DNA from: Octopus sinensis
Lineage: Eukaryota
Assembly: GCF_006345805.1 (NCBI RefSeq)
Contig: NW_021832811.1
Span: forward strand, 1 to 38,596
Direction: 5' to 3'
DNA: 38,596 bases
Part shown: in pieces, positions 5,594 to 36,274 of the stretch
Layout: each line of letters begins with the position of its first letter
How positions within the stretch are numbered: the first letter of the stretch is position 1
Made by a program: the position numbers and the translations under genes
The notes under the pieces: model-generated
Database searches by the model: none
The model's input: the letters and a program-made list of their open reading frames with translations, nothing else
Told to the model about the DNA's origin: nothing

Positions 5594-5980
5594 AGTGCAG
5601 GTATGGCTGTGTGGTAAGAAGCTTGGTTACCAACCGCATGGTTCCGGGTTCAGTCCCTCTGTGTGGCACCTATAGCTTCGGGGTGACCAAAGCCTTGTGA
5701 GTGGATTTGGGAGACGGAAACTGAAAGAAGCTCGTCGTATATACATGTGTCTATGTGTGTAGCAATGTGTCTGTTTGTCCCGACACCATCGCTTGACAAC
5801 AAATGTCATTTCATTTATGTCCCCCGTAACTTAGCAGTTAAGCAAAAGAGACCGATAGAATAACTACTAGGCCTACAAAAAATAAGTCCTGGGGCCGATT
5901 GCTTTATTTAAAAGCCTTTAAGGCAGTGCTCCAGCATGGCCGCAGTCAAATGACAGAAAACAAACAAGAGAATAAAAGAA
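5594..5980 (+). mobile_element. tRNA-derived SINE family B
   Basis: Head gcaggtatggctgtgtggtaagaagcttg..ggttcagtccc; shared body and tail with copies at 2827, 15789 and 22651. Confidence 0.88.
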
Positions 5981-6019
5981 CATACGTACATACACACACG
6001 TATGTATACATTTATATTT

Positions 6020-6155
6020 ATGGTTTGGGGTTCAGTCCCACTGTGGGTCACCTTGGGCAAGTGTCTTTTACAAAACCCTCGGGCTGACCAAAGTCTTGTG
6101 AGTGGATTTGGTAGCCAGAAACTGATAACAATCCGCTCTTCATATAATTTGTGTG

Positions 6156-6211
<56 letters not shown>

Positions 6212-6380
6212 TCTTTCTGTCTGTTCATCCTTGTAAATTAAGCTTAAAAAATTTTTTAAATTATCGATTAGTTCGACTAAAATTTCTCAAGGCGGTGCTG
6301 CAACCTGGCCAAGTCTAATGACTGAGACAAGTAAGAGATAAAAAAAAATACATGCATGGCGGTGCTCCAGCATGTCCGCA
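6020..6380 (+). mobile_element. SINE family B fragments
   Basis: ggttcagtcccactgtgggtcaccttgggcaagtgtctt..gtgagtggatttggtag, plus two tail pieces ggcggtgct(g/c)ca. Confidence 0.7.
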
Positions 6381-6382
6381 GC

Positions 6383-6550
6383 TTCTGGTGCTTTGCAAAT
6401 TTTTGGGAAAATGAAACAAGTTGAGTTCTCAGTCTGCACGAGTGCAATCGGATCCTTTTCTACGTGTTTCCTTGAGTGGACGGCAAGGCCTGCTTTGCTC
6501 CGTTCCACAAAACCACAATGACAGGTAAGGTTTCCATTCAGAGGAGCAGC
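6383..6550 (-). pseudogene. C2H2-like zinc-finger coding fragment, probably the C-terminus of an RTE-type LINE ORF
   Basis: Extending ORF 6287..6508 upstream gives AAPLNGNLTCHCGFVERSKAGLAVHSRKHVEKDPIALVQTENSTCFIFPKICK: C-x-C..SKAGL..H.R.H plus a decayed second finger. No TGEKP linker. Confidence 0.55.
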
Positions 6551-6790
6551 GTATGTATGTTGTATGTATGTATGTATGTATGTATGTATGTATGTATGTA
6601 TGTATGTATGTATGATGTATATATATATATATATAATATATAGATAATATATATATGATATATATATATATATATTAATATATATAGATAGATAGATAGA
6701 TATATAGATAGATAGATAGATAGATAGATTAGATAGATGATAGATAGAATAGATAGATTAGATATAGATTATGTATGTATGTATATATAT

Positions 6791-6835
<45 letters not shown>
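6551..6835. repeat. (ATGT)n/(GATA)n/(TA)n microsatellites
   Basis: Direct inspection. Confidence 0.95.
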
Positions 6836-6837
<2 letters not shown>

Positions 6838-7032
6838 GGAGAATTCACAAAAGAAAAAACAAAAGACAAAGACAGGTGCTGTAGACAACAAACAGATGTA
6901 TTAGTATAACGCTCGGGAAGTGAAAAAGTCTTAACGTTTCGAGCCTACGCTCTTCCACAGAAAGGAAACAGAAAGAAAGAAACGAGGATAGAAAATAAAG
7001 AATGTGTAGTGGCTAGCGATCTATCATGGCGA
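6836..7032 (-). mobile_element. Interspersed repeat with hammerhead-like motif (putative PLE terminal-repeat fragment)
   Basis: Homologous to 13042-13225 in opposite orientation. Minus strand reads ttt-CTGTGGAA-gagc-gtag-gctc-GAAAC-GTT-aag; the 3' end abuts (TA)n. Confidence 0.6.
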
Positions 7033-7036
7033 ATAA

Positions 7037-7437
7037 TCTTTATATATAAAAGTAAGGTTGTGTGTCTGTCTCCTACGATTTAGATTCCTAAATACTCCTA
7101 CATTTTGCGTTGCAGTTACAACCAAAAACCGGGTATCTTATAGTCGTGATTCATATCGAGCCCTCTGGGTATTAGCGCGCGTCTACGATGAGTCTACGAT
7201 TTAAAAAAAAAATCATCTACCATTCATTTTTTTCCATTTTAATGCATTTTTTCGCTATTTATAAGGGAAGTAACTCTCTAAAAGTCTACGATGAATCAAC
7301 GATTTAAAAAAAACATTTACCATCATTTTTTTCCATTTTTAATGTATTCTTTTGCTATTTTTTGGCTATAACTCTCTAAAAATGCTTATATAGTTATTTC
7401 CCTTACAAACCCGAGCAACACCGGGCGATACTGCTAG
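7037..7437 (+). mobile_element. Non-autonomous Helitron
   Basis: A|TCTTTATATATAAAAG start; subterminal hairpin cccgagcaacaccggg (7410-7425); CTAG|T end; inserted between A and T without TSD; internal ~100-bp direct duplication. Confidence 0.88.
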
Positions 7438-7533
7438 TATATATATATATGATTACGCAATTATAATTATAATAGGAACCATAATAAATAGCGCCATATG
7501 CTAGAAAGTGACGCTGAATGGCTCTAAGAACTA

Positions 7534-7890
7534 TCGGGCTGAGTGAAAAGTAAGCAAGATTTTGAATCGTGAAATTCATCACAATATATTTCAACAATAC
7601 AGAAATTTTACTCATTAAATTTTATTCCGGTAACATAAAAATCTGGAGTTCTGGAGCTGATGAACTCTTTGAACGCACTTCCAGCATCGGTTTGTTTTTC
7701 GAAACTACTTCTCTCCCAAGAAGCCGTCAAGGTGCTTGAAAAAGAGGATAATCGGTAGGAGAGAGGTCTGCGGAATAAGCTGGGTGGAGTAAAACTTCGT
7801 AGCCAGGTTCCCTCAACTTCTGGAGGGTCATTAGTGAAACGTGTGGTCAAGTATTGTCATGAAGAATGGATGGCTCTCTTCTGCTGACCG
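7534..7890 (-). mobile_element. Mariner (cecropia/Hsmar1-like) 3' fragment with right TIR
   Basis: Minus-strand translation across frameshifts: ILHDNT*PHVSLMTLQKLREPGYEVLLHPAYSADLSPTDYPLF/KHLDGFLGEK/FEKQTDAGSAFKEFISSRTPDFYVTGIK (HDNARPH and YSPDLxPxD motifs). TIR-like end tcgggctgagtgaaaagtaagc is preceded by TA (7532-7533). Confidence 0.85.
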
Positions 7891-7891
7891 G

Positions 7892-7998
7892 AGGTGTTTT
7901 CTGCTCAATAACACTCACAACGCCCGGTCTGGGAATCGAAACCGCGTTCCTATGACCGCGAATCCGCTGCCCTAACCACTGGGCCATTGCGCCTCCAC
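7892..7998 (-). mobile_element. tRNA-derived SINE head (family C-like)
   Basis: Reverse complement gtggaggcgcaatggcccagtggttagggcagcgg..ggtttcgattcccagaccggg has A-box and B-box; similar to the heads at 30463 and 31532. Confidence 0.8.
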
Positions 7999-8371
7999 TA
8001 TTTTTACAATCCAGCTACACACACACACATACACACTCACACACACACACATACACACACACACACACATACACACACACATGCACACACACACACACAT
8101 ACACACACACACACACACAGAGTCACCTCCTTCCCATTATTAACCGACTGTACCTCAGTGTTTCCTTTTCCTCTGTATGATATGGTTATGATTCTCTACC
8201 TAACCCCGTTCCACCCGTGCCCTTCAGCCACTGTTTCTCTCCTCCTCCTCCTCCTCCTCCTCTTCCCACGCCTCATAAGCTGCTCTCTCTCTCTCTCCTT
8301 CTCTCTCTCTCTCTATCTCTTTCTCTCTCTCTCTGTATTTTTCTCTGTCTATCTGTCTCTGTCTGTCCCCC

Positions 8372-8414
<43 letters not shown>

Positions 8415-8822
8415 TCTTTCTACCGTACAACCGCCGTCCGCCCGTTCCGCCTGCCACCCGCTGCCCGCCGCCCGTCCGCTCGTCGCTTGTCCCGCCACCG
8501 GTCGGGACGGTCGCGTAAGGTTAAGGTGTGAACGACGCGAAGAATAAAAAGCCACGTTTAAATGGTTGCTATTGTTGTTGATGTTGTTGTTGTACTTTTT
8601 GGCGGCGGCGGCGGCGCTCCGTTGATTTTGTTTAAAATGTAATTAACTTCTCTTTTTAATTATCCTCGATCATTAACCACAGAGGAAGCAAGACACATGC
8701 ACACACGCACGCACGCACGCACACACACTCATACGCTCAGGCACACACACACACACAGAGAAAGAGCGGTGGGGAGGGAGAATTTGAAGACATCGTTTTA
8801 ATTAATTTTGTATATTTGTCTC

Positions 8823-10137: not shown

Positions 10138-10140
10138 TTT

Positions 10141-12960
10141 GTTCGTCTCCCCATGGCCATTAGGCACAAACTTCACAAGCCCGCCCCATACTCCACTCGT
10201 CCTGTCGAAAGACCCTTGTCCCACGTCCTGGTTTTGTTTTGTTGTTTATTTTTTTATTTTATTTTTACCGTTATTGTTTTTACGTTTTTGTATTCTTATT
10301 GGTGTCACGTTATTCGTATTTTGTTTCTGTAACTTCGTTCTTTTTCCGTCCTCGCGTTGTATACATTCGAAGCTTTTCTCCGGGGATTAATGCGCTTGGC
10401 TTAGATTTCCCTTGGCTGCTGGCATATCGGAGCACAATCTCAAGATTAATCACCGAAATTGCTAAGATGATCTGGTCTTTGACTGATGACTGAGGGCTTC
10501 GAATGTCCCGTCCTGTGGTTCTGTGTCGTCTCTGTGGTGTTTTCATGTTCTTGTCCATGTCGTAATTATTTTACTGTTTACCTATATAATCGGCGGCTAC
10601 GTATCCACAATTGACCTTATACGATAAGTATATTTTTTCTCTAGCATTGATACGACTCTTAATCTGTCTCTTCTTCTCTCCTCTCCTCCCTCCTTATTCC
10701 CCTTCCTTTCTTTCCCTCTCCATCCGTCTCCCCCCCCTTCTACGTTTCTCTATCTCTCTCACCTCCAGCCCCCTCGATCTGTCTCTTTCTTCTCCTCCCC
10801 GTCCACCTTCTCTCTCTTTTCATCTGTCCCTTTCTCCTGTCTTCTGTTCTCAACGTGACAGCTAGCCGCCGTTGAGCGCTCTTTTCGTTTTCAGCAGCCG
10901 CAGAAGCAACACGTATTTGTTCGTCTCCCCGTGGCCATTAGCACAACTTCACAAGCCAGCCCCAATACTCAACTCGTCCTGTCGAAAGACCCTTGTCCCA
11001 CGTCCTGGTTTTGTTTTGTTGTTTATTTTTTATTTTTATTTTTTATACCGTTATTGTTTTTTACGTTTTTGTATTCTTATTGGTGTCACGTATCTGTATT
11101 TTTGTTTCTGTACTCGTTCTTTTTCCGTCCTCGCGTTGTATCACTCGAAGCTTTCTCCCAGGGGATCTAATGCGCTTGGCTTAGATTTCCCTTGGCTGGC
11201 TGGCCATATCGGAGCAATCTCAAGATTAATCAGCCGAAATTGCTAAGATATCTGGTTTTGACTGATGACTGAGGCTTCGAATGTCCCGTCCTGTGTTCTT
11301 GTGTCGTCTCTGTGGTGTTTCATGTTCTTGTCCATGTCTGTAATTATTTTTACTGTTTACCCTATATAATCGGCGGCTACGTATCCACAATTGACCTATA
11401 CGATAAGTTATTTTTTTCTCTAGCATTGATACGACTCTTAATCTGTCTCTTTTTCTCTCTCTCTCTCTCTTCTCTTCTCCTCCCTTATTCCCCCTTCCTT
11501 TCTTTCCCTCTCCATCCGTCTCCCCCCCCTTCTACGTTTCTCTATCTCTCTCACCTCCAGCCCCCTCGATCTGTCTCTTTCTTCTCCGCCCTCGTCCACC
11601 TTCTCTCTCTTTTCATCTGTCCCTTTCTCCTGTCTTCTGTTCTCACGTGACAGCTAGCCGCCGTTGAGCGCTCTTTTCGTTTTCAGCAGCCGCAGAAGCA
11701 ACACGTATTTGTTCGTCTCCCCGGGCCATTAGGCACAACTTCACAAGCCAGCCCCATACTCACTCGTCCTGTCGAAAGACCCTTGTCCCACGTCCTGGTT
11801 TTGTTTTGTTGTTTATTTTTTATTTTTATTTTTACCGTTATTGTTTTTTTTACGTTTTGTATTCTTATTGGTGTCACGTATTCTGTATTTTTGTTTCTGT
11901 ACTTCGTTCTTTTTCCGTCCTCGCGTTGTATACATTCGAAGCTTTCTTCCAGGGATCTAATGCGCTTGGCTTAGATTTCCCTTGGCTGGCTGGCCATATC
12001 GGAGCAATCTCAAGATAATCAGCCGAAATTGCTAAGATGATCTGGTTCTTGACTGATGACTGAGGGCTTCGAATGTCCCGTCCTGTGGTTCTTGTGTCGT
12101 CTCCCTCTGTGGTGTTTCATGTTCTTGTCCATGTCTGTAATTATTTTTTACTGTTTACCTATATAATCGGCGGTACGTATCCACAATTGACCTTATACGA
12201 TAAGTATATTTTTTCTCTCTAGCATTGATACGACTCTTAATCTGTCTCTTTTTCTCTCTCATCTCTCCTCCCTTATTCCCCTTCCTTTCTTTCCCTCTCT
12301 CCGTCTCCCCCCCCCTTCTATTCTACGTTTCTCTATCTCTCTCCCCTCCAGCCCCCTCGATCTGTCTCTTTCTTCTTCTCCCTCCCTCGTCCACCTTCTC
12401 TCTCTTTTCATCTGTCCCTTTCTCCTGTCTTCTGTTCTCACGTGACAGCTAGCCGCCGTTGAGCGCTCTTTTTCGTTTTCAGCAGCCGCAGAAGCAACAC
12501 TTATTTGTTCGTCTCCCCGTGGCCATTAGGCACAACTTCACAAGCCAGCCCCAATACTCAACTCGTCCTGTCGAAAGACCCTTGTCCCCACGTCCTGGTT
12601 TTGTTTTGTTGTTTTTTTTTTATTTTTATTTGTACCGTTATTGTTTTTACGTTTTTGTATTCTTATTGGTGTCACGTATTCGTATTTTTGTTTCTTCTGT
12701 ACTCGTTCTTTTTCCGTCCTCGCGTTGTATACATTTCGAAGCTTTTCTTCCAGGGGATCTAATGCGCTTGGCTTAGATTTCCCTTGGCTGGCTGGCCATA
12801 TCGGAGCAATCTCAAGATTAATCAGCCGAAATTGCTAAGATGATCTGGTTCTTGACTGATGACTGAGGCTTCGAATGTCCCGTCCTGTGGTTCTTGTGTC
12901 GTCTCTGTGGTTGTTTCATGTTCTTGTCCATGTCTGTAATTATTTTTACTGTTTACCTAT
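10141..12960 (+). repeat. Tandem array of ~780-796-bp units (3 full + ~0.57), A-B-A-B-A-B-A; putative PLE/retrozyme-like element
   Basis: Anchor gttcgtctcccc at 10141, 10919, 11711 and 12507. The array is flanked on both sides by (TA)n. CTGATGA occurs at 10483, 11262, 12053 and 12856. Confidence 0.95.
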
Positions 12961-14067: not shown

Positions 14068-14505
14068 TGGTGGCGAGCTGGCAGTATCGTCAGCACCCGG
14101 GCAATACGCTTAGCATCACTTCACCTGTCGCTATGTTCCGAGTTCAAATTCCTCCGAGGTCGACTTTGCCTTTCTTCCTCTCGGGGTCAACAAATTAAGC
14201 GCCAGTGAAATACTGGGGTCGACGTAATCGACTATTCCTCTGTCCCCAAATTTCAGGCCTTGTGCCCTTAGCAGAAAGGATTAGTTAATTAGTTGGCAGA
14301 GTTGCTATAACGTGGGGAAAATGTTTCGTGACATTCGTTCCCGCTCTTAAATGACCTGCGTTTCAATCTCGCAGAGTTCAGCCTGGACACTCATCTCTTC
14401 GGGGCCGATGAAATATATTCCTAGTCAAATATTAACTATCACCCCTCAATTGTATTAACTATTACCCCTCTCCTCAAAAACTCTTGACCCTGAACCTAAA
14501 AATCA
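14068..14505 (+). mobile_element. Two head-to-tail SINE family A copies (second degraded)
   Basis: ggcgagctggcag..gagttcaaattcctccgaggtcgactttgcc..ggggtc..tactggggtcgacgtaatcgact..tttcaggccttgtgcc. Confidence 0.8.
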
Positions 14506-14632
14506 AAAAGTATATATATCTCACATATCTCACATATCTCCTACATATCTCACACCTATTTTCTTTCCTCCACCTCGCTCTCTATTTTGTATCACATCTA
14601 AACTAACTATGGCTTAACTATCCTTTTACACA

Positions 14633-14684
14633 GTCTCCGATGAAGGGATATAATTAACAAATATCCTGGAAACAGCTGTAAGAC
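14633..14684 (+). ncRNA. Minimal type I hammerhead ribozyme motif
   Basis: Stem I gtct/agac; core CCGATGA (U4>C variant) followed by A; stem II gggatat/atatcct; GAAAC 14669-14673; palindromic stem III AC-AGCT-GT; GUA triplet 14678-14680; about 70 nt upstream of (TA)n. Confidence 0.7.
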
Positions 14685-14746
14685 CTTCTACCTATTAATG
14701 TTCTAAATTCTACACAGGCCTTGGTTTTTTATATCATTACGAAAAC

Positions 14747-14783
<37 letters not shown>

Positions 14784-15788
14784 CAAGTAAGCCTATTCCC
14801 CATTTCTTTTTAGGAGAGGGTAGCCACAACAGGACACACACCAGGCATCCATTAATTTCCCATCTCAAAGAGGCAAGCCTCGTTCTATGTTCGGGTCTAA
14901 GTATAGAACACAGCCCCCAGTATCAGAAGCGGGGCCCGACAGCATATGCTGGTTTACTCCCGCCGCATCATGCTGGTCCTGTACTCCTTTGAGCAATATC
15001 AAATTTACTCATCAACAAAAAGTAAAGAAACATTATGGCGAGCTGACAGGACCTTTGGCTTTGACTCAAAATAAGAAAGCTTTCACTTTTAGGGTTCCAT
15101 AAGATAAAGTAGCAACAAGATGCTGTAATCAATTGTTCACTTACCCTATATTTTGGGACCTAAGACTATTGAACAATATCCTTGGTAACTAATCAACTAA
15201 TTCATAAGGCACTGTGTAATACTGTTGGTCAGTTGGAAATGTAAGCTATTGCTTTTTTTTTATTAAATGAAAGTACACTTTTATCTTACTGTGTAAAAGA
15301 AGCAAAATGGCTACTCCTATTTACATTTTTATATAAGTATAATCTGAAATTTTCAGCAAATGCAAGCGCATAGACAAATTCCTTTTGTCGTATTGGATGA
15401 CACAACTTCTCCGAAGTGAGCAACCGTCTCGCTGGATTTGGACGCTTCCTGTTGAATTATTCAATGCCAGTAACATAAATTATGGTTTTTACGATCAAAG
15501 GGGATGTAACATTCAATTTTCTTTTCTTTCTTTACTTTCTCTTTTACATTTTTATTCACCCTTTGTCTTCTTATTCAAATTTCTGCATCGACATTCTTCT
15601 CGTTTTTTTCTCGTCGTTTCTCATGTACCTGTGCCTTGATTTTCAAGCAGAACTAACAATGTGTCCTAAAACAATGGATTGCTTGGAGACACAGGACACA
15701 TTCCATAGATATCTGCCTAACCTCTGTGTCTTTATGGAAAGAAACTATATATATATATATCTTATTTTAAATACTCTAATCTTGGAGC

Positions 15789-16192: not shown

Positions 16193-16305
16193 GGATAATC
16201 TGGAACTCGACGGAAGAAAGAAAACTCTGAATGACCCGTCCTTGATATTTTGTATCGTCTGTCCGGATGTTTTGCGTTCTTGTCCCATTTTTGGTATTCC
16301 TTTAT
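16193..16305 (+). mobile_element. Diverged solo 3' end of the tandem-array element family
   Basis: gataatctgg..gacggaaga..gaatgacccgtcc..tcgtct..gttcttgtcc aligns collinearly with gatgatctgg..gactgatga..gaatgtcccgtcc..tcgtct..gttcttgtcc in the array unit; also ends at a TA tract. Confidence 0.6.
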
Positions 16306-17945: not shown

Positions 17946-18369
17946 AAGCGGCGAGCTGGCAGAAACGTTAGCATACGTCTTTACGTTCTGAGCTCAAATT
18001 CCGCCGAGGTCGACTTTGTCTTTCATCCTTTTGGGGGTCGATAAATTAAGTACTAGTGAAGAACTGGGGTTAATGTAATGGACAAGTCCCCCTCTTAGAA
18101 ATTTCAGGCCATGTGCCTATAATAGATAGGATAATTATTATTATTAAGGCGGTGGGCTGGCAGAATCGTTCGCGCGTTGGACGAAATGCTTAGCGGTATT
18201 TCAACCGTCTTTACGTCCGAGTTCAAATTCTGCCGGGGTCGATGTAATCGACTTAATCCCTTCCCTTAAATTTGAGGCCTTGTGCTTCCAGTAGAAATTA
18301 TTATTATTATTATTATTATTATTATCAGCATCATCCTCATCCTCATCATCATTATTATTATTATTATTA

Positions 18370-21095: not shown

Positions 21096-21840
21096 GACTT
21101 CAGAACTTAAAGACGGAAGAACAGAATAAAATAACCCTTTCTCCTATAGGCAAAATGCAAGTAAATTAAAGGGAGGGGTGCTTGTTGATTATATTGACCC
21201 CAGAACATGACTGGTACCTGTTTCATTGATTTTGAATGGATGAAAGGCAAAGTCGACCTCAGCAGAAATTGAACTGAGAACTTAGAGACAGAAGAACAAC
21301 AAAGAAATAGTCCTTTCTACAATAGACACAAGGCCTGAAATTTTGGGGAGGGATGGGACTAGCTGATTACTTTGACCCCAGAGTATGACTGGTACCTGTT
21401 TCATCGATTTTGAAAGATGAACGGCAAAGTCGACCTCAGCAGAAATTGAACTGAGAACTTAGAGACGGAAGAACAACAATGAAATAGTCCTTTCTACAAT
21501 AGGCACAATGCCTGAAATTTTGAGGAGGGATGGGACTAGCTGATTACTTTGACCCCAGAGTATGACTGATACCTGTTTCATCGATTTTGAAAGATGAACG
21601 GCAAAGTCGACCTCAGCAGAATTTGAACTGAGAACTTAGAGACGGAAGAAATAGTCCTTTCTACAATAAGCAGAAGACCTAAAATTTTGGAGAGAGATGG
21701 GGCTAGTTGATTACAATGACCCCAGAGCATGGCTGATACTTTCTTTTATTTTCATCGACTCCGAAAGGATGAAAAGAAGAAGTTGACCTTGGCGGTATTC
21801 GAACTCAGAACGTAAAGGCGGCGGAAGAACAACAACGAGA
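21096..21840 (-). repeat. SINE-A-derived tandem repeat, ~177-bp period, ~4 copies
   Basis: Anchor gtcgacctc/gttgacctt at 21252, 21429, 21606 and 21782. Confidence 0.92.
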
Positions 21841-22980: not shown

Positions 22981-23071
22981 TAAAATGATGAACAACTTTA
23001 ATCGATTTTCGAACCTTATTTGATTCTCAGCAGAGGCGTCTACATCATTCCGACACAATTGTCACATATAA

Positions 23072-23210
23072 AATATGCGACAATTAGTTGGTTGTCATAA
23101 TAAAACTCAGAGTTTCGGATACCGGGGCTGATGACATGCCGGAGCAGTCTTCAGCCTTGGTATCCGAAATTCTGAGTTTTATTATGACAATCAACTAATT
23201 GTCTCATATT
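23072..23210. repeat. 64-bp-arm inverted repeat (hairpin)
   Basis: Arms 23072-23135 and 23147-23210 with 6 mismatches; inner tgc-cgga-gca mini-stem. Confidence 0.95.
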
Positions 23211-23282
23211 ATATTTATAGATAAATTCCTCTATTTTACATAATATCGAGGTCTCATTCAATCTTTTGTTGTCATATTACTA

Positions 23283-23306
<24 letters not shown>

Positions 23307-34120: not shown

Positions 34121-35389
34121 TTGGGTTGAGGAATAATTCATGAGCCTTTTTTTTGTCAAATTTATTTTTAAAAAATAAAAAAAAATACTTCAACAAATTA
34201 ATCAATAATATACTCTCCTTTATTGTTTACGACTTCCTCTCATCGTTCAATAAGTTTTCCGATGCCTCGGTGATAGAAATCTGCCGGTTTTGACTCAAAG
34301 AATTCGTCCGACCAAGCCCTCACTTCCACGTCATTATTGAACCATACACTGCGCAAAGAGTTAGAAAGAGAAGAAAATCTGACGGCGTCAGATTATGGAG
34401 GATGAGGCTGTACTTCCCGTCCCACTTCTTGAATCGCAGTTTTGGCGATGTGAGGACGGGCGATGTCGTGTTGCAGAAGAACGCCATTTTGCCTATTCGG
34501 TCATTTTTGCTGATTTGCTTCGTTGAGTTGATGCAGTTGTTGAACGTAGAGCTCCGCATTGAGTGTTTGGTTGCACTCAAGCAGTTCGTAATGAATTATG
34601 CCTTCCCAGTCCCACCATACACACAGCATGGTCTTCTGAGGATGGTCTTGTTTTGCTCGTAGAGTCGCTTTTTTGTCGGGGCTGAGCCATTCGTTTCGCT
34701 AATTCATATTGAAATAAAGGCACCATTTTTCATCGCCAGTGACAATGCAGTAAAGAAAAAGCTGTTTGTGACCATCTGTTGAGCGATGTCGAGCAAGCAA
34801 ACTGGTGACGATTGTGGAGCGTTGTTTTTTGTTGTTTTCGCTCAAAGTCTGTGGCACCCAAGCGCCGAGTTTCTCAACTTCGCCTATTGAGTAAAGGTGA
34901 TTCACCACAGTTTTTTTTATTACAATCCATCTGCTCTGCCTATTCTCTGGTCGATTGATGTGGATTTTCATGAAGAAGTTGATTCAATCGCTCTTCATCA
35001 AATTCAGTTGGTCGACCGCTGTTTGATCCGTTCTTGGGGGTCAAAATTCCCATTTTTGAAGCATGAAAACCAAAAGCGGGCAGTACCCTGAGGCATTGCC
35101 CCTTCTCTCCAAACACAGCACAAATTTCAAGAGTAGCTTCTGCGACCTTAACACCTCGATTAAAGGCAAAAAGCAAATGGTGTCGAAAATGCTCAGTTTT
35201 GTCCACTTGACATTCCATTTTATGATCTGAAAATACGCAAAAATCAATAAAATTAAAAAGTCAAAACACACTCCCTTTTAGGGCAAAACATTCTCTATCA
35301 AATAACATAAAACATTTTGCCGATGCGTTTTATTTCTGCGTGCGTTTTTAAATTTGAGAAGAACGCTCAGGAATCATTCCTCAACCCAA
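34121..35389 (-). mobile_element. Near full-length mariner (DD34D-type) transposon, ~1.27 kb, decayed
   Basis: TIRs ttgggttgaggaataattcatgagc / gctcaggaatcattcctcaacccaa (2 mismatches in 25); flanking dinucleotides CA and TT each differ from TA by one base. Confidence 0.93.
34198..35218 (-). pseudogene. Mariner transposase pseudogene
   Basis: MECQVDKTEHFRHHLLFAFNRG..SGRPTEFD; WVPQTL (WVPHEL); IVTGDEKW; LLQHDIARPH; LTPSDF with YSP deleted; FYHRGIGKLIER*EEVVNNKGEYIID*; multiple frameshifts and stops. Confidence 0.93.
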
Positions 35390-35888: not shown

Positions 35889-36274
35889 ATGATCTGCCGA
35901 CGACATTCTTATAGAGTTGCGTGATTTTTAGCACAGAAGTATGTGATTCCTGGAAGGTAGTAAATTGGGGACAGAAAATAGTATTTTAGGGATCCATGGA
36001 AAAAAGTGATTTAGAGGTATCTATTGCAAGAAAAAACTAGGTTTCTCTCTCTGATATTTTACATAGTTCAGCCTATACAAGTTAATGTGTGAATTACAAA
36101 ATAGGAACTTTGAAAGAAGTAGCTCTAAAACTAGTTCCAAAATATCAACTGGATCTGGGGTCCACCAGAATAAAATAGTAATGAATAGGGTCCTTAGAAA
36201 CAGTGTTATAAAGGAATACAAGCGACGACAGCAATATAAAGAAATCCAAACAAATCGGAAAAAAGGAGAAGCAA

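Follow-up and report, generated by a model that had tools for sequence, protein, structure and literature searches.

The segment at positions 14534 to 14755 on the forward strand of the window (i.e., the whole 38,596-nt stretch of Octopus sinensis contig NW_021832811.1 that was analyzed) is very probably a TA-flanked, 5′-truncated pseudo-LTR (pLTR) of a Hydra-clade Penelope-like retrotransposon (PLE), with a hammerhead motif in which a family-wide U4-to-C change likely weakens or abolishes self-cutting. The surrounding DNA is microsatellite-rich animal sequence, and the fragment has TA repeats on both sides: (TA)4T at 14511 to 14519, which probably represents the left-hand half of the target TA tract, as judged from the sequence and from the TA counts at the 5′ junctions of the family, and (TA)15 at 14752 to 14781 at the 3′ junction, where the fragment stops at the first 3′ end site of its family. 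The hammerhead, on the same strand, consists of a 4-bp stem I (GUCU, 14633 to 14636; AGAC, 14681 to 14684), the core CCGAUGA (14637 to 14643, with C instead of U4 at 14638), an extra A (14644), a 7-bp stem II (GGGAUAU/AUAUCCU, 14645 to 14651 and 14661 to 14667) that is closed by a G10.1·U11.1 wobble and capped by a 9-nt AU loop, an extra G (14668), and the GAAA block (14669 to 14672). The latter overlaps the self-complementary palindrome ACAGCUGU (14672 to 14679), which would form an 8-bp stem III in the dimer only, and is followed by the GUA triplet (14678 to 14680), with cutting predicted after 14680. The family tail that leads from the ribozyme to the first 3′ end site (14685 to 14751) has no consensus fold; a search for a conserved hairpin behind the ribozyme returned no consensus pairs in 20 copies. 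The pyrimidine-rich stretch upstream and the (TA)n about 70 nt downstream, both pointed out in the earlier note on this DNA, were confirmed, the gap from the predicted cut to (TA)15 being 71 nt.

That note had further described the motif as a clear minimal hammerhead. Its fold, palindrome, GUA site, and distance to TA stood, whereas the word "clear" did not, given the C at position 4 and the G·U pair at 10.1-11.1. Specifically, the fold provides stems I and II, a palindromic stem III, and an NUH site, as expected of minimal type I motifs, while the core CUGANGA...GAAA with G10.1-C11.1 is lacking in the window copy and in most of its subfamily. A hammerhead descriptor run over the whole window yielded one match with a perfect core (212) and two with one mismatch, palindromic at 14637 and nonpalindromic at 35897; the same descriptor returned no perfect, two one-mismatch, and no palindromic matches in total from 12 local shuffles. 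The monomer fold energy of the window motif is not unusual (z −0.83), no hammerhead occurred among the Rfam matches listed for the window (150 of 288, only microsatellite-driven rows), and a tRNA scan of the window found none. Across 27 related copies, selected with a pattern in which stem II and part of stem III are fixed, 95.7% of the stem cells were paired, with no two-sided changes. In the predicted monomer fold of the window copy, C3 and C4 are base-paired to G12 and to the extra G (P, 0.86 to 0.88). This misfold is also predicted for the E and B copies and is absent in the D-type copy tested; the canonical subfamily A monomers are predicted to misfold in another way. Folding predictions gave an 8-bp intermolecular helix at the palindrome in all six copies folded.

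The proposed multicopy PLE family was borne out by searches of the 2.72-Gb genome. The query 14480 to 14760 retrieved 2,055 candidates, of which the 40 scored were 84 to 90% identical, the window itself aside. A 33-nt ribozyme pattern had 313 exact matches and a broader one 1,861, with no match for either reversed control; genome-wide counts come from such pattern searches and from about 1.1 Mb of fetched loci. Family copies have common 3′ ends and scattered 5′ ends, many carry an inverted 5′ arm, and most are short and noncoding. One of them adjoins a tandem array of about 249-bp units that are 97% alike (5785 to 8701 of locus L127).

Walking upstream from the pLTR led to a 3′ UTR, a GIY-YIG region, and a reverse transcriptase (RT) with GLYRDD. 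At locus L121, residues 130 to 792 of the database homologue P0001 are collinear (tblastn) and are followed by a pLTR arm with 85.8% identity to the window fragment over 218 nt. The same link between the open reading frame (ORF) and the pLTR was found for older subfamilies (L223, L226, and L238), and at L198 and L196 the tail past the first end site continues into the ORF's start. Four database homologues of the ORF share 30 to 43% identity; Pfam searches with the ORF and its homologues gave GIY-YIG below threshold only and no match for the RT. Because its motifs match those defined for the Hydra clade in section 11 of PMC8557442, the element appears by sequence to be a coding Hydra-clade PLE and not a retrozyme. 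A single ORF encodes the RT and then a C-terminal GIY-YIG endonuclease (collinear tblastn, GLYRDD, and VIYK..YIGST). Unmended copies have RMRWK in nine distinct readings and SDKT in 12 of 14, which correspond to the RWK and DKT motifs of the clade. The linker is CxCx5C (CNCRPGTTC), one Cys lies between VIY (VIYK) and YIG (YIGST) with no CCHH, and the endonuclease has CxxC before E (CKLCLKE) and CxH after N (LLNK..CNH); insertion into (TA)n likewise agrees with the clade. Its canonical 3′ hammerhead is seen in subfamily A (U4 in 23 of 24 copies), whereas the subfamily of the window copy has C4 in 42 of 44. Neptune and Nematis elements were rejected, since the protein lacks CCHH inside GIY-YIG, DKG, and the CX2-5CxxC linker, as were Naiad and Chlamys, in which the endonuclease is N-terminal and not C-terminal as here.

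The earlier note had spoken of several PLE or retrozyme families. Several distinct hammerhead-bearing families are indeed present in the window; the retrozyme label does not suit the family at 14633 in view of its link to an ORF. A non-autonomous retrozyme would account for the predominance of short, noncoding copies, and is nevertheless extremely improbable: non-LTR retrozymes are noncoding tandem hammerhead units, and the copies here derive from a coding element by 5′ truncation to varying extents, with scattered 5′ ends, no fixed tandem unit, and long members that run into the RT-endonuclease ORF. The collinear ORF in L121 and L123 already refutes the retrozyme reading.

We next consider the history of the core change in this Hydra-clade element. 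Of 116 distinct copies, 105 have C at position 4, 10 have T, and 1 has A; the extra A is universal (116/116), and position 11.1 is T in 107 and C in 6. With C4 at this frequency in the family and in 42 of the 44 copies of its own subfamily group, decay of the window copy alone was rejected as the source of its U4-to-C change. The matches listed (100 of 313) comprise 89 with C at position 4 and 11 with T; only C or U occurred there in 200 listed matches from two families, with any base allowed. We classified 97 copies, made up of the first 30 matches to the broad pattern, 40 hand-picked from the same list to fill classes, and the pattern-fitting loci of the 33-nt search. C4 occurs in 1 of 24 copies of subfamily A, 10 of 17 of B (one row being a misfiled DE-type copy), 6 of 12 of C, and 42 of 44 of DE, to which the window copy belongs, and subfamilies A and B mostly retain G10.1-C11.1. 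In the tree, the subfamilies form a ladder that leads from A via B and C to DE, and a 100/97 branch sets A apart. Since this tree is midpoint-rooted, the direction of the core change rests on within-group divergence levels (downstream/upstream, 0.136/0.207 for A, 0.159/0.191 for B, 0.088/0.096 for C, and 0.085/0.125 for DE), by which A and B are similar in age. U4>C and C11.1>U likely arose in successive steps in the parent lineage during continued amplification. For the half-and-half presence of C4 in B and C, CpG decay or a mixture of parents may be responsible; the minority T copies of the young subfamily fit CpG decay, since the neighboring CpG decays similarly.

Efficient cleavage was probably dispensable for amplification, because the core changed while the lineage kept amplifying, and our analysis suggests that cleavage is likely weak or lost in the C4 subfamilies. 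Alternatively, the C4 hammerhead may be a functional dimeric ribozyme, slow or protein assisted, that processes tandem element RNA, which we regard as rather unlikely. The fold, the palindrome, and the remaining core letters are retained in all subfamilies from A to DE, position 4 is restricted to C or U in the 200 listed matches, and a second family has C4 in 69 of its 100 matches listed. The core also varied less than the neighboring columns (2.8% versus 5.9%, p 0.006) in 53 copies that were retrieved through other parts of the element, a comparison confounded by mixed subfamilies and alignment ends. Published precedents exist for both features invoked: as reported in PMC3088659, U4C lowers hammerhead activity in vitro, yet a viroid variant with this change is active enough in vivo, and one PLE ribozyme is described in PMC11167929 as protein assisted. 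Conversely, the family of the 6929 motif has A6>U in 15 of 15 parsed copies, and of 20 copies of the second C4 family 6 have a broken stem I, yet both amplified widely, and no compensatory change was seen within the lineage (27 copies). Ribozyme mutants, moreover, do not impair PLE insertion in vitro according to PMC11167929. Loss or weakening of cleavage remains the preferred reading.

TA association of the 14633 family, also anticipated in the earlier note, was confirmed with the first 30 of the 313 pattern matches, chosen by the ribozyme pattern alone. (TA)4+ lies 40 to 100 nt past the cut site in 20 of these 30 copies, versus 5.7% at 12,000 random positions of the same loci, and 15 of the 30 (a few marginal by eye) have (TA)3+ at the variable 5′ junction, versus 9.4% at 18,000 positions. 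The note had left open whether such elements target or seed the microsatellites. For this family the data favor insertion into existing tracts over seeding, because TA is also found at the variable 5′ ends; insertion into (TA)n is reported for almost all Hydra families in PMC8557442. Seeding, in which the TATA at the element's own 3′ end expands by slippage in AT-rich DNA, is improbable. It would explain why both 3′ end sites coincide with TA-like words of the element, why 10 of the 30 copies lack (TA)4+ at 40 to 100 nt, and why contigs of other samples revealed no empty site. TA at the 5′ junction, however, cannot come from the template, and the published (TA)n preference of nearly all Hydra families points the same way; slippage may still lengthen tracts after insertion.

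Where targeting of existing tracts is concerned, the 3′ ends of the copies are informative. They cluster at two places, site 1 and a second site 140 to 162 nt further (site 2), both TA-like words; site 2 ends account for 5 of the 30 copies in the pattern sample. Diverging arms combine one end at site 1 and one at site 2 in 40 of 44 pairs, while two pairs use site 1 twice and two use site 2 twice; many of these loci were retrieved with site 2 queries, two of them count double, and one supposed end reads through into the ORF. A cleaner subset consists of the seven loci from the search with 14480 to 14760 that have an inverted arm next to a main arm ending at site 1; in all seven, site 2 is where the inverted arm ends, versus the 5 of 30 in the pattern sample. 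Unequal arm ends (40/44) lend genomic support to a model with two start sites. The endonuclease of the element would cut a (TA)n tract, and the RT would then prime at TA-like words of the element RNA that lie downstream of the ribozyme, either about 70 nt past the cut site (site 1) or within the 5′ UTR, immediately ahead of the start codon (site 2). Copying would often halt early, leaving fragments such as 14534 to 14755, and priming on both target strands would likely produce one arm from each site. The tail at one end only that is described for Hydra PLEs in PMC8557442 fits the unequal arm ends observed here, as do the two internal RT starts of PAc (PMC11167929).

A further proposal, which we advance tentatively and consider rather unlikely, concerns several prolific TA-ending hammerhead families that would have changed core letters in their parent copies and kept amplifying, with fold and palindrome retained: by U4>C here, by U4>C in a second, unrelated family with 9,531 matches, and by A6>U in a family related to that second one. 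The hammerhead might be retained as a structural handle for RNA dimerization or RT binding; two templates would thereby be paired, and priming on each target strand would take place at a start site of its own. The dated subfamily ladder offers a natural mutant series for testing this.

The earlier note had also suggested that these motifs could cleave host transcripts crossing them. We found no support for this: the copy is a single unit, has no stem III of its own, and carries a C4 core. PLE minimal hammerheads do not cleave as monomers in the work reported in PMC4209133, and the PAc ribozyme needed the protein of its element to cleave at all (PMC11167929). On these grounds, cutting of host transcripts by a lone C4 copy seems unlikely. 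Recruitment of the copy as a host regulatory ribozyme that cuts transcripts across it is very improbable, even with an insertion that is old and common to other samples and with a window dense in hammerhead-like motifs. The copy is a single unit without a monomeric stem III and with a C4 core; like any decaying copy, it deviates from the family majority (at 6 of 76 positions), and the frames listed in the window are mostly translations of simple repeats. No RNA matches were listed for the locus. Contigs of samples X2, X4, and X5/X7 span the 5′ junction (21 differences in 271 nt, ∼8%, for X5/X7), whereas the related sample X6 does without 14473 to 15103 altogether and has 47 other letters in place. 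The X6 gap was rejected as an empty target site, since its breakpoints are away from the element ends and it thus reads as a deletion; the contigs of the other samples likewise contained no empty target site. The window copy is probably an old, passive relic. Directly after its TA tract lies another multicopy repeat (14782 to 15020), recognized by depth and by an 82% match in locus L173.

Among known systems, the closest are Hydra-1_Obim and related elements (Craig et al. 2021, PMC8557442), which, as described there, have in common with the element here RWK, DKT, the CxCx5C linker, CxxC/CxH, and the lack of CCHH, as well as insertion into (TA)n, a 3′ hammerhead whose stem III is palindromic and whose stem II has extra bases next to it, inverted 5′-truncated arms, and a one-ended tail. 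The extra bases flanking stem II are normal for the clade, since many Hydra hammerheads in File S2 of that study carry them on both sides. The hammerhead listed for Hydra-1_oBim differs from that of the element here, which indicates a different family. Further differences concern the core, CUGA in 26 of 26 Hydra rows of File S2, where the descriptors are for canonical cores, and CCGA in the younger subfamilies here, and the tail, 30 to 40 nt in the published clade and 140 to 162 nt here. With the PLE minimal hammerheads of Cervera and De la Peña (2014, PMC4209133), the motif shares the type I topology, the 4-bp stem I, the 7-bp stem II, an unpaired base after A9, the palindromic stem III, the predominance of single truncated copies, and the dependence on a dimer; that report describes a conserved G10.1-C11.1 and a U3-A8 core variant, whereas U4>C and G10.1·U11.1 are found here. 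The Anolis Poseidon element PAc (Frangieh et al. 2024, PMC11167929) similarly has two internal RT starts downstream of the hammerhead that define a tail, and an AT-rich target; its ribozyme is dispensable for insertion in vitro. The PAc starts, however, lie 111 to 118 nt inside the ORF and are nonhomologous to the target, while those proposed here are TA-like, about 150 nt apart, and in the 5′ UTR. The viroid U4C hammerhead cited in Perreault et al. (2011, PMC3088659) has the same core change, with lower in vitro activity; here, a retrotransposon carries it, in a minimal motif of the dimer type.

Hammerheads in PLE pseudo-LTRs and the targeting of (TA)n by Hydra elements are already published. 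The modest novelty lies in a lineage that underwent stepwise changes of its ribozyme core while many copies were made; the literature searched contained no report of a family-wide C4 in a PLE, a statement on which Lunse 2017 (PLE hammerhead variants) and its supplements may bear. The function of PLE hammerheads is called unclear in PMC8557442, and they are dispensable in vitro in PMC11167929. Subfamilies A (U4, G-C), B (C4, G-C), and DE (C4, G·U) are ready-made constructs for this question. Descriptors that demand CUGANGA would miss the C4 copies.

The recurring layout that had been proposed for the window, a hammerhead-like motif followed by a short T-rich tail and a microsatellite, applies only in part, and one minimal type I architecture common to the motifs is not supported. 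Several families end in TA, but their topology is not common to all and several cores are altered: the tandem array and the 16193 motif are permuted, 6929 and 13106 have A6>U, and 23128 has no stem I. The core of the motif at 205 to 297 is canonical. Its family is young (1,685 candidates, with 95 to 99% identity across the part in common), and TA follows immediately in 13 of 19 copies; the TA tract of the window copy is ∼400 nt away. Positions 324 to 691, which separate the copy at 1 to 323 from that tract, are not family sequence. The motifs at 6929 and 13106 have the core CUGUNGA (A6>U), and TA occurs within 130 nt of 10 of 11 incidental copies of their family versus a background of 19.9%. 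Four Hydra-like proteins used as queries found no PLE ORF near this family in 24 loci. A neighboring repeat (7036 to 7381) with a 100-bp tandem part is 92 to 95% identical to sequence in L182.

The motif at 23128 comes from a canonical-core family in which two of three relatives have TA within 130 nt; in the window copy, stem I was lost to an inverted 5′ arm. That arm of the hammerhead-bearing family makes a long hairpin of positions 23068 to 23285. The abundant family that provided the main RF00163 hits (L159 to L188) has the canonical core CUGAAGA and a longer stem III. It is not enriched in TA within 130 nt (5/17 versus the 19.9% background), and its TA distances fall near 30 to 50 and 140 to 165 nt. 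The second C4 family (core CCGACGA; e.g., L354 to L368) has 9,531 exact matches. In 17 of 20 copies TA lies within 112 nt, about 100 nt downstream, and the six copies with a broken stem I form a subgroup. This family is unrelated to that at 14633 and, by eye, related to that of 6929 and 13106.

We took the "array motif" of the earlier note to be the array at 10.1 to 12.9 kb. This array (10138 to 12957), probably the most interesting feature of the window, comprises about 3.6 tandem units of ∼790 bp that are 92 to 93% alike and ends in (TA)n. Its units contain a permuted hammerhead-like motif (site, GAAA, and CUGAUGA blocks) at 10434, 11214, 12004, and 12806; in 10 relatives from other loci, stems I and III show covariation, and the partner of stem II seems to lie upstream. 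TA is found in 6 of 10 members of the array/16193 family, three of the misses being inner array units. The motif at 16193 to 16305 is a truncated relic of the permuted family, with the first two blocks missing and a damaged core. A 177-bp tandem array at 21186 to 21739, with no hammerhead descriptor match, resembles a very common interspersed repeat, which we take to be SINE-like. Finally, broken frames on the minus strand at 34700 to 35260 presumably derive from a mariner-type transposase.
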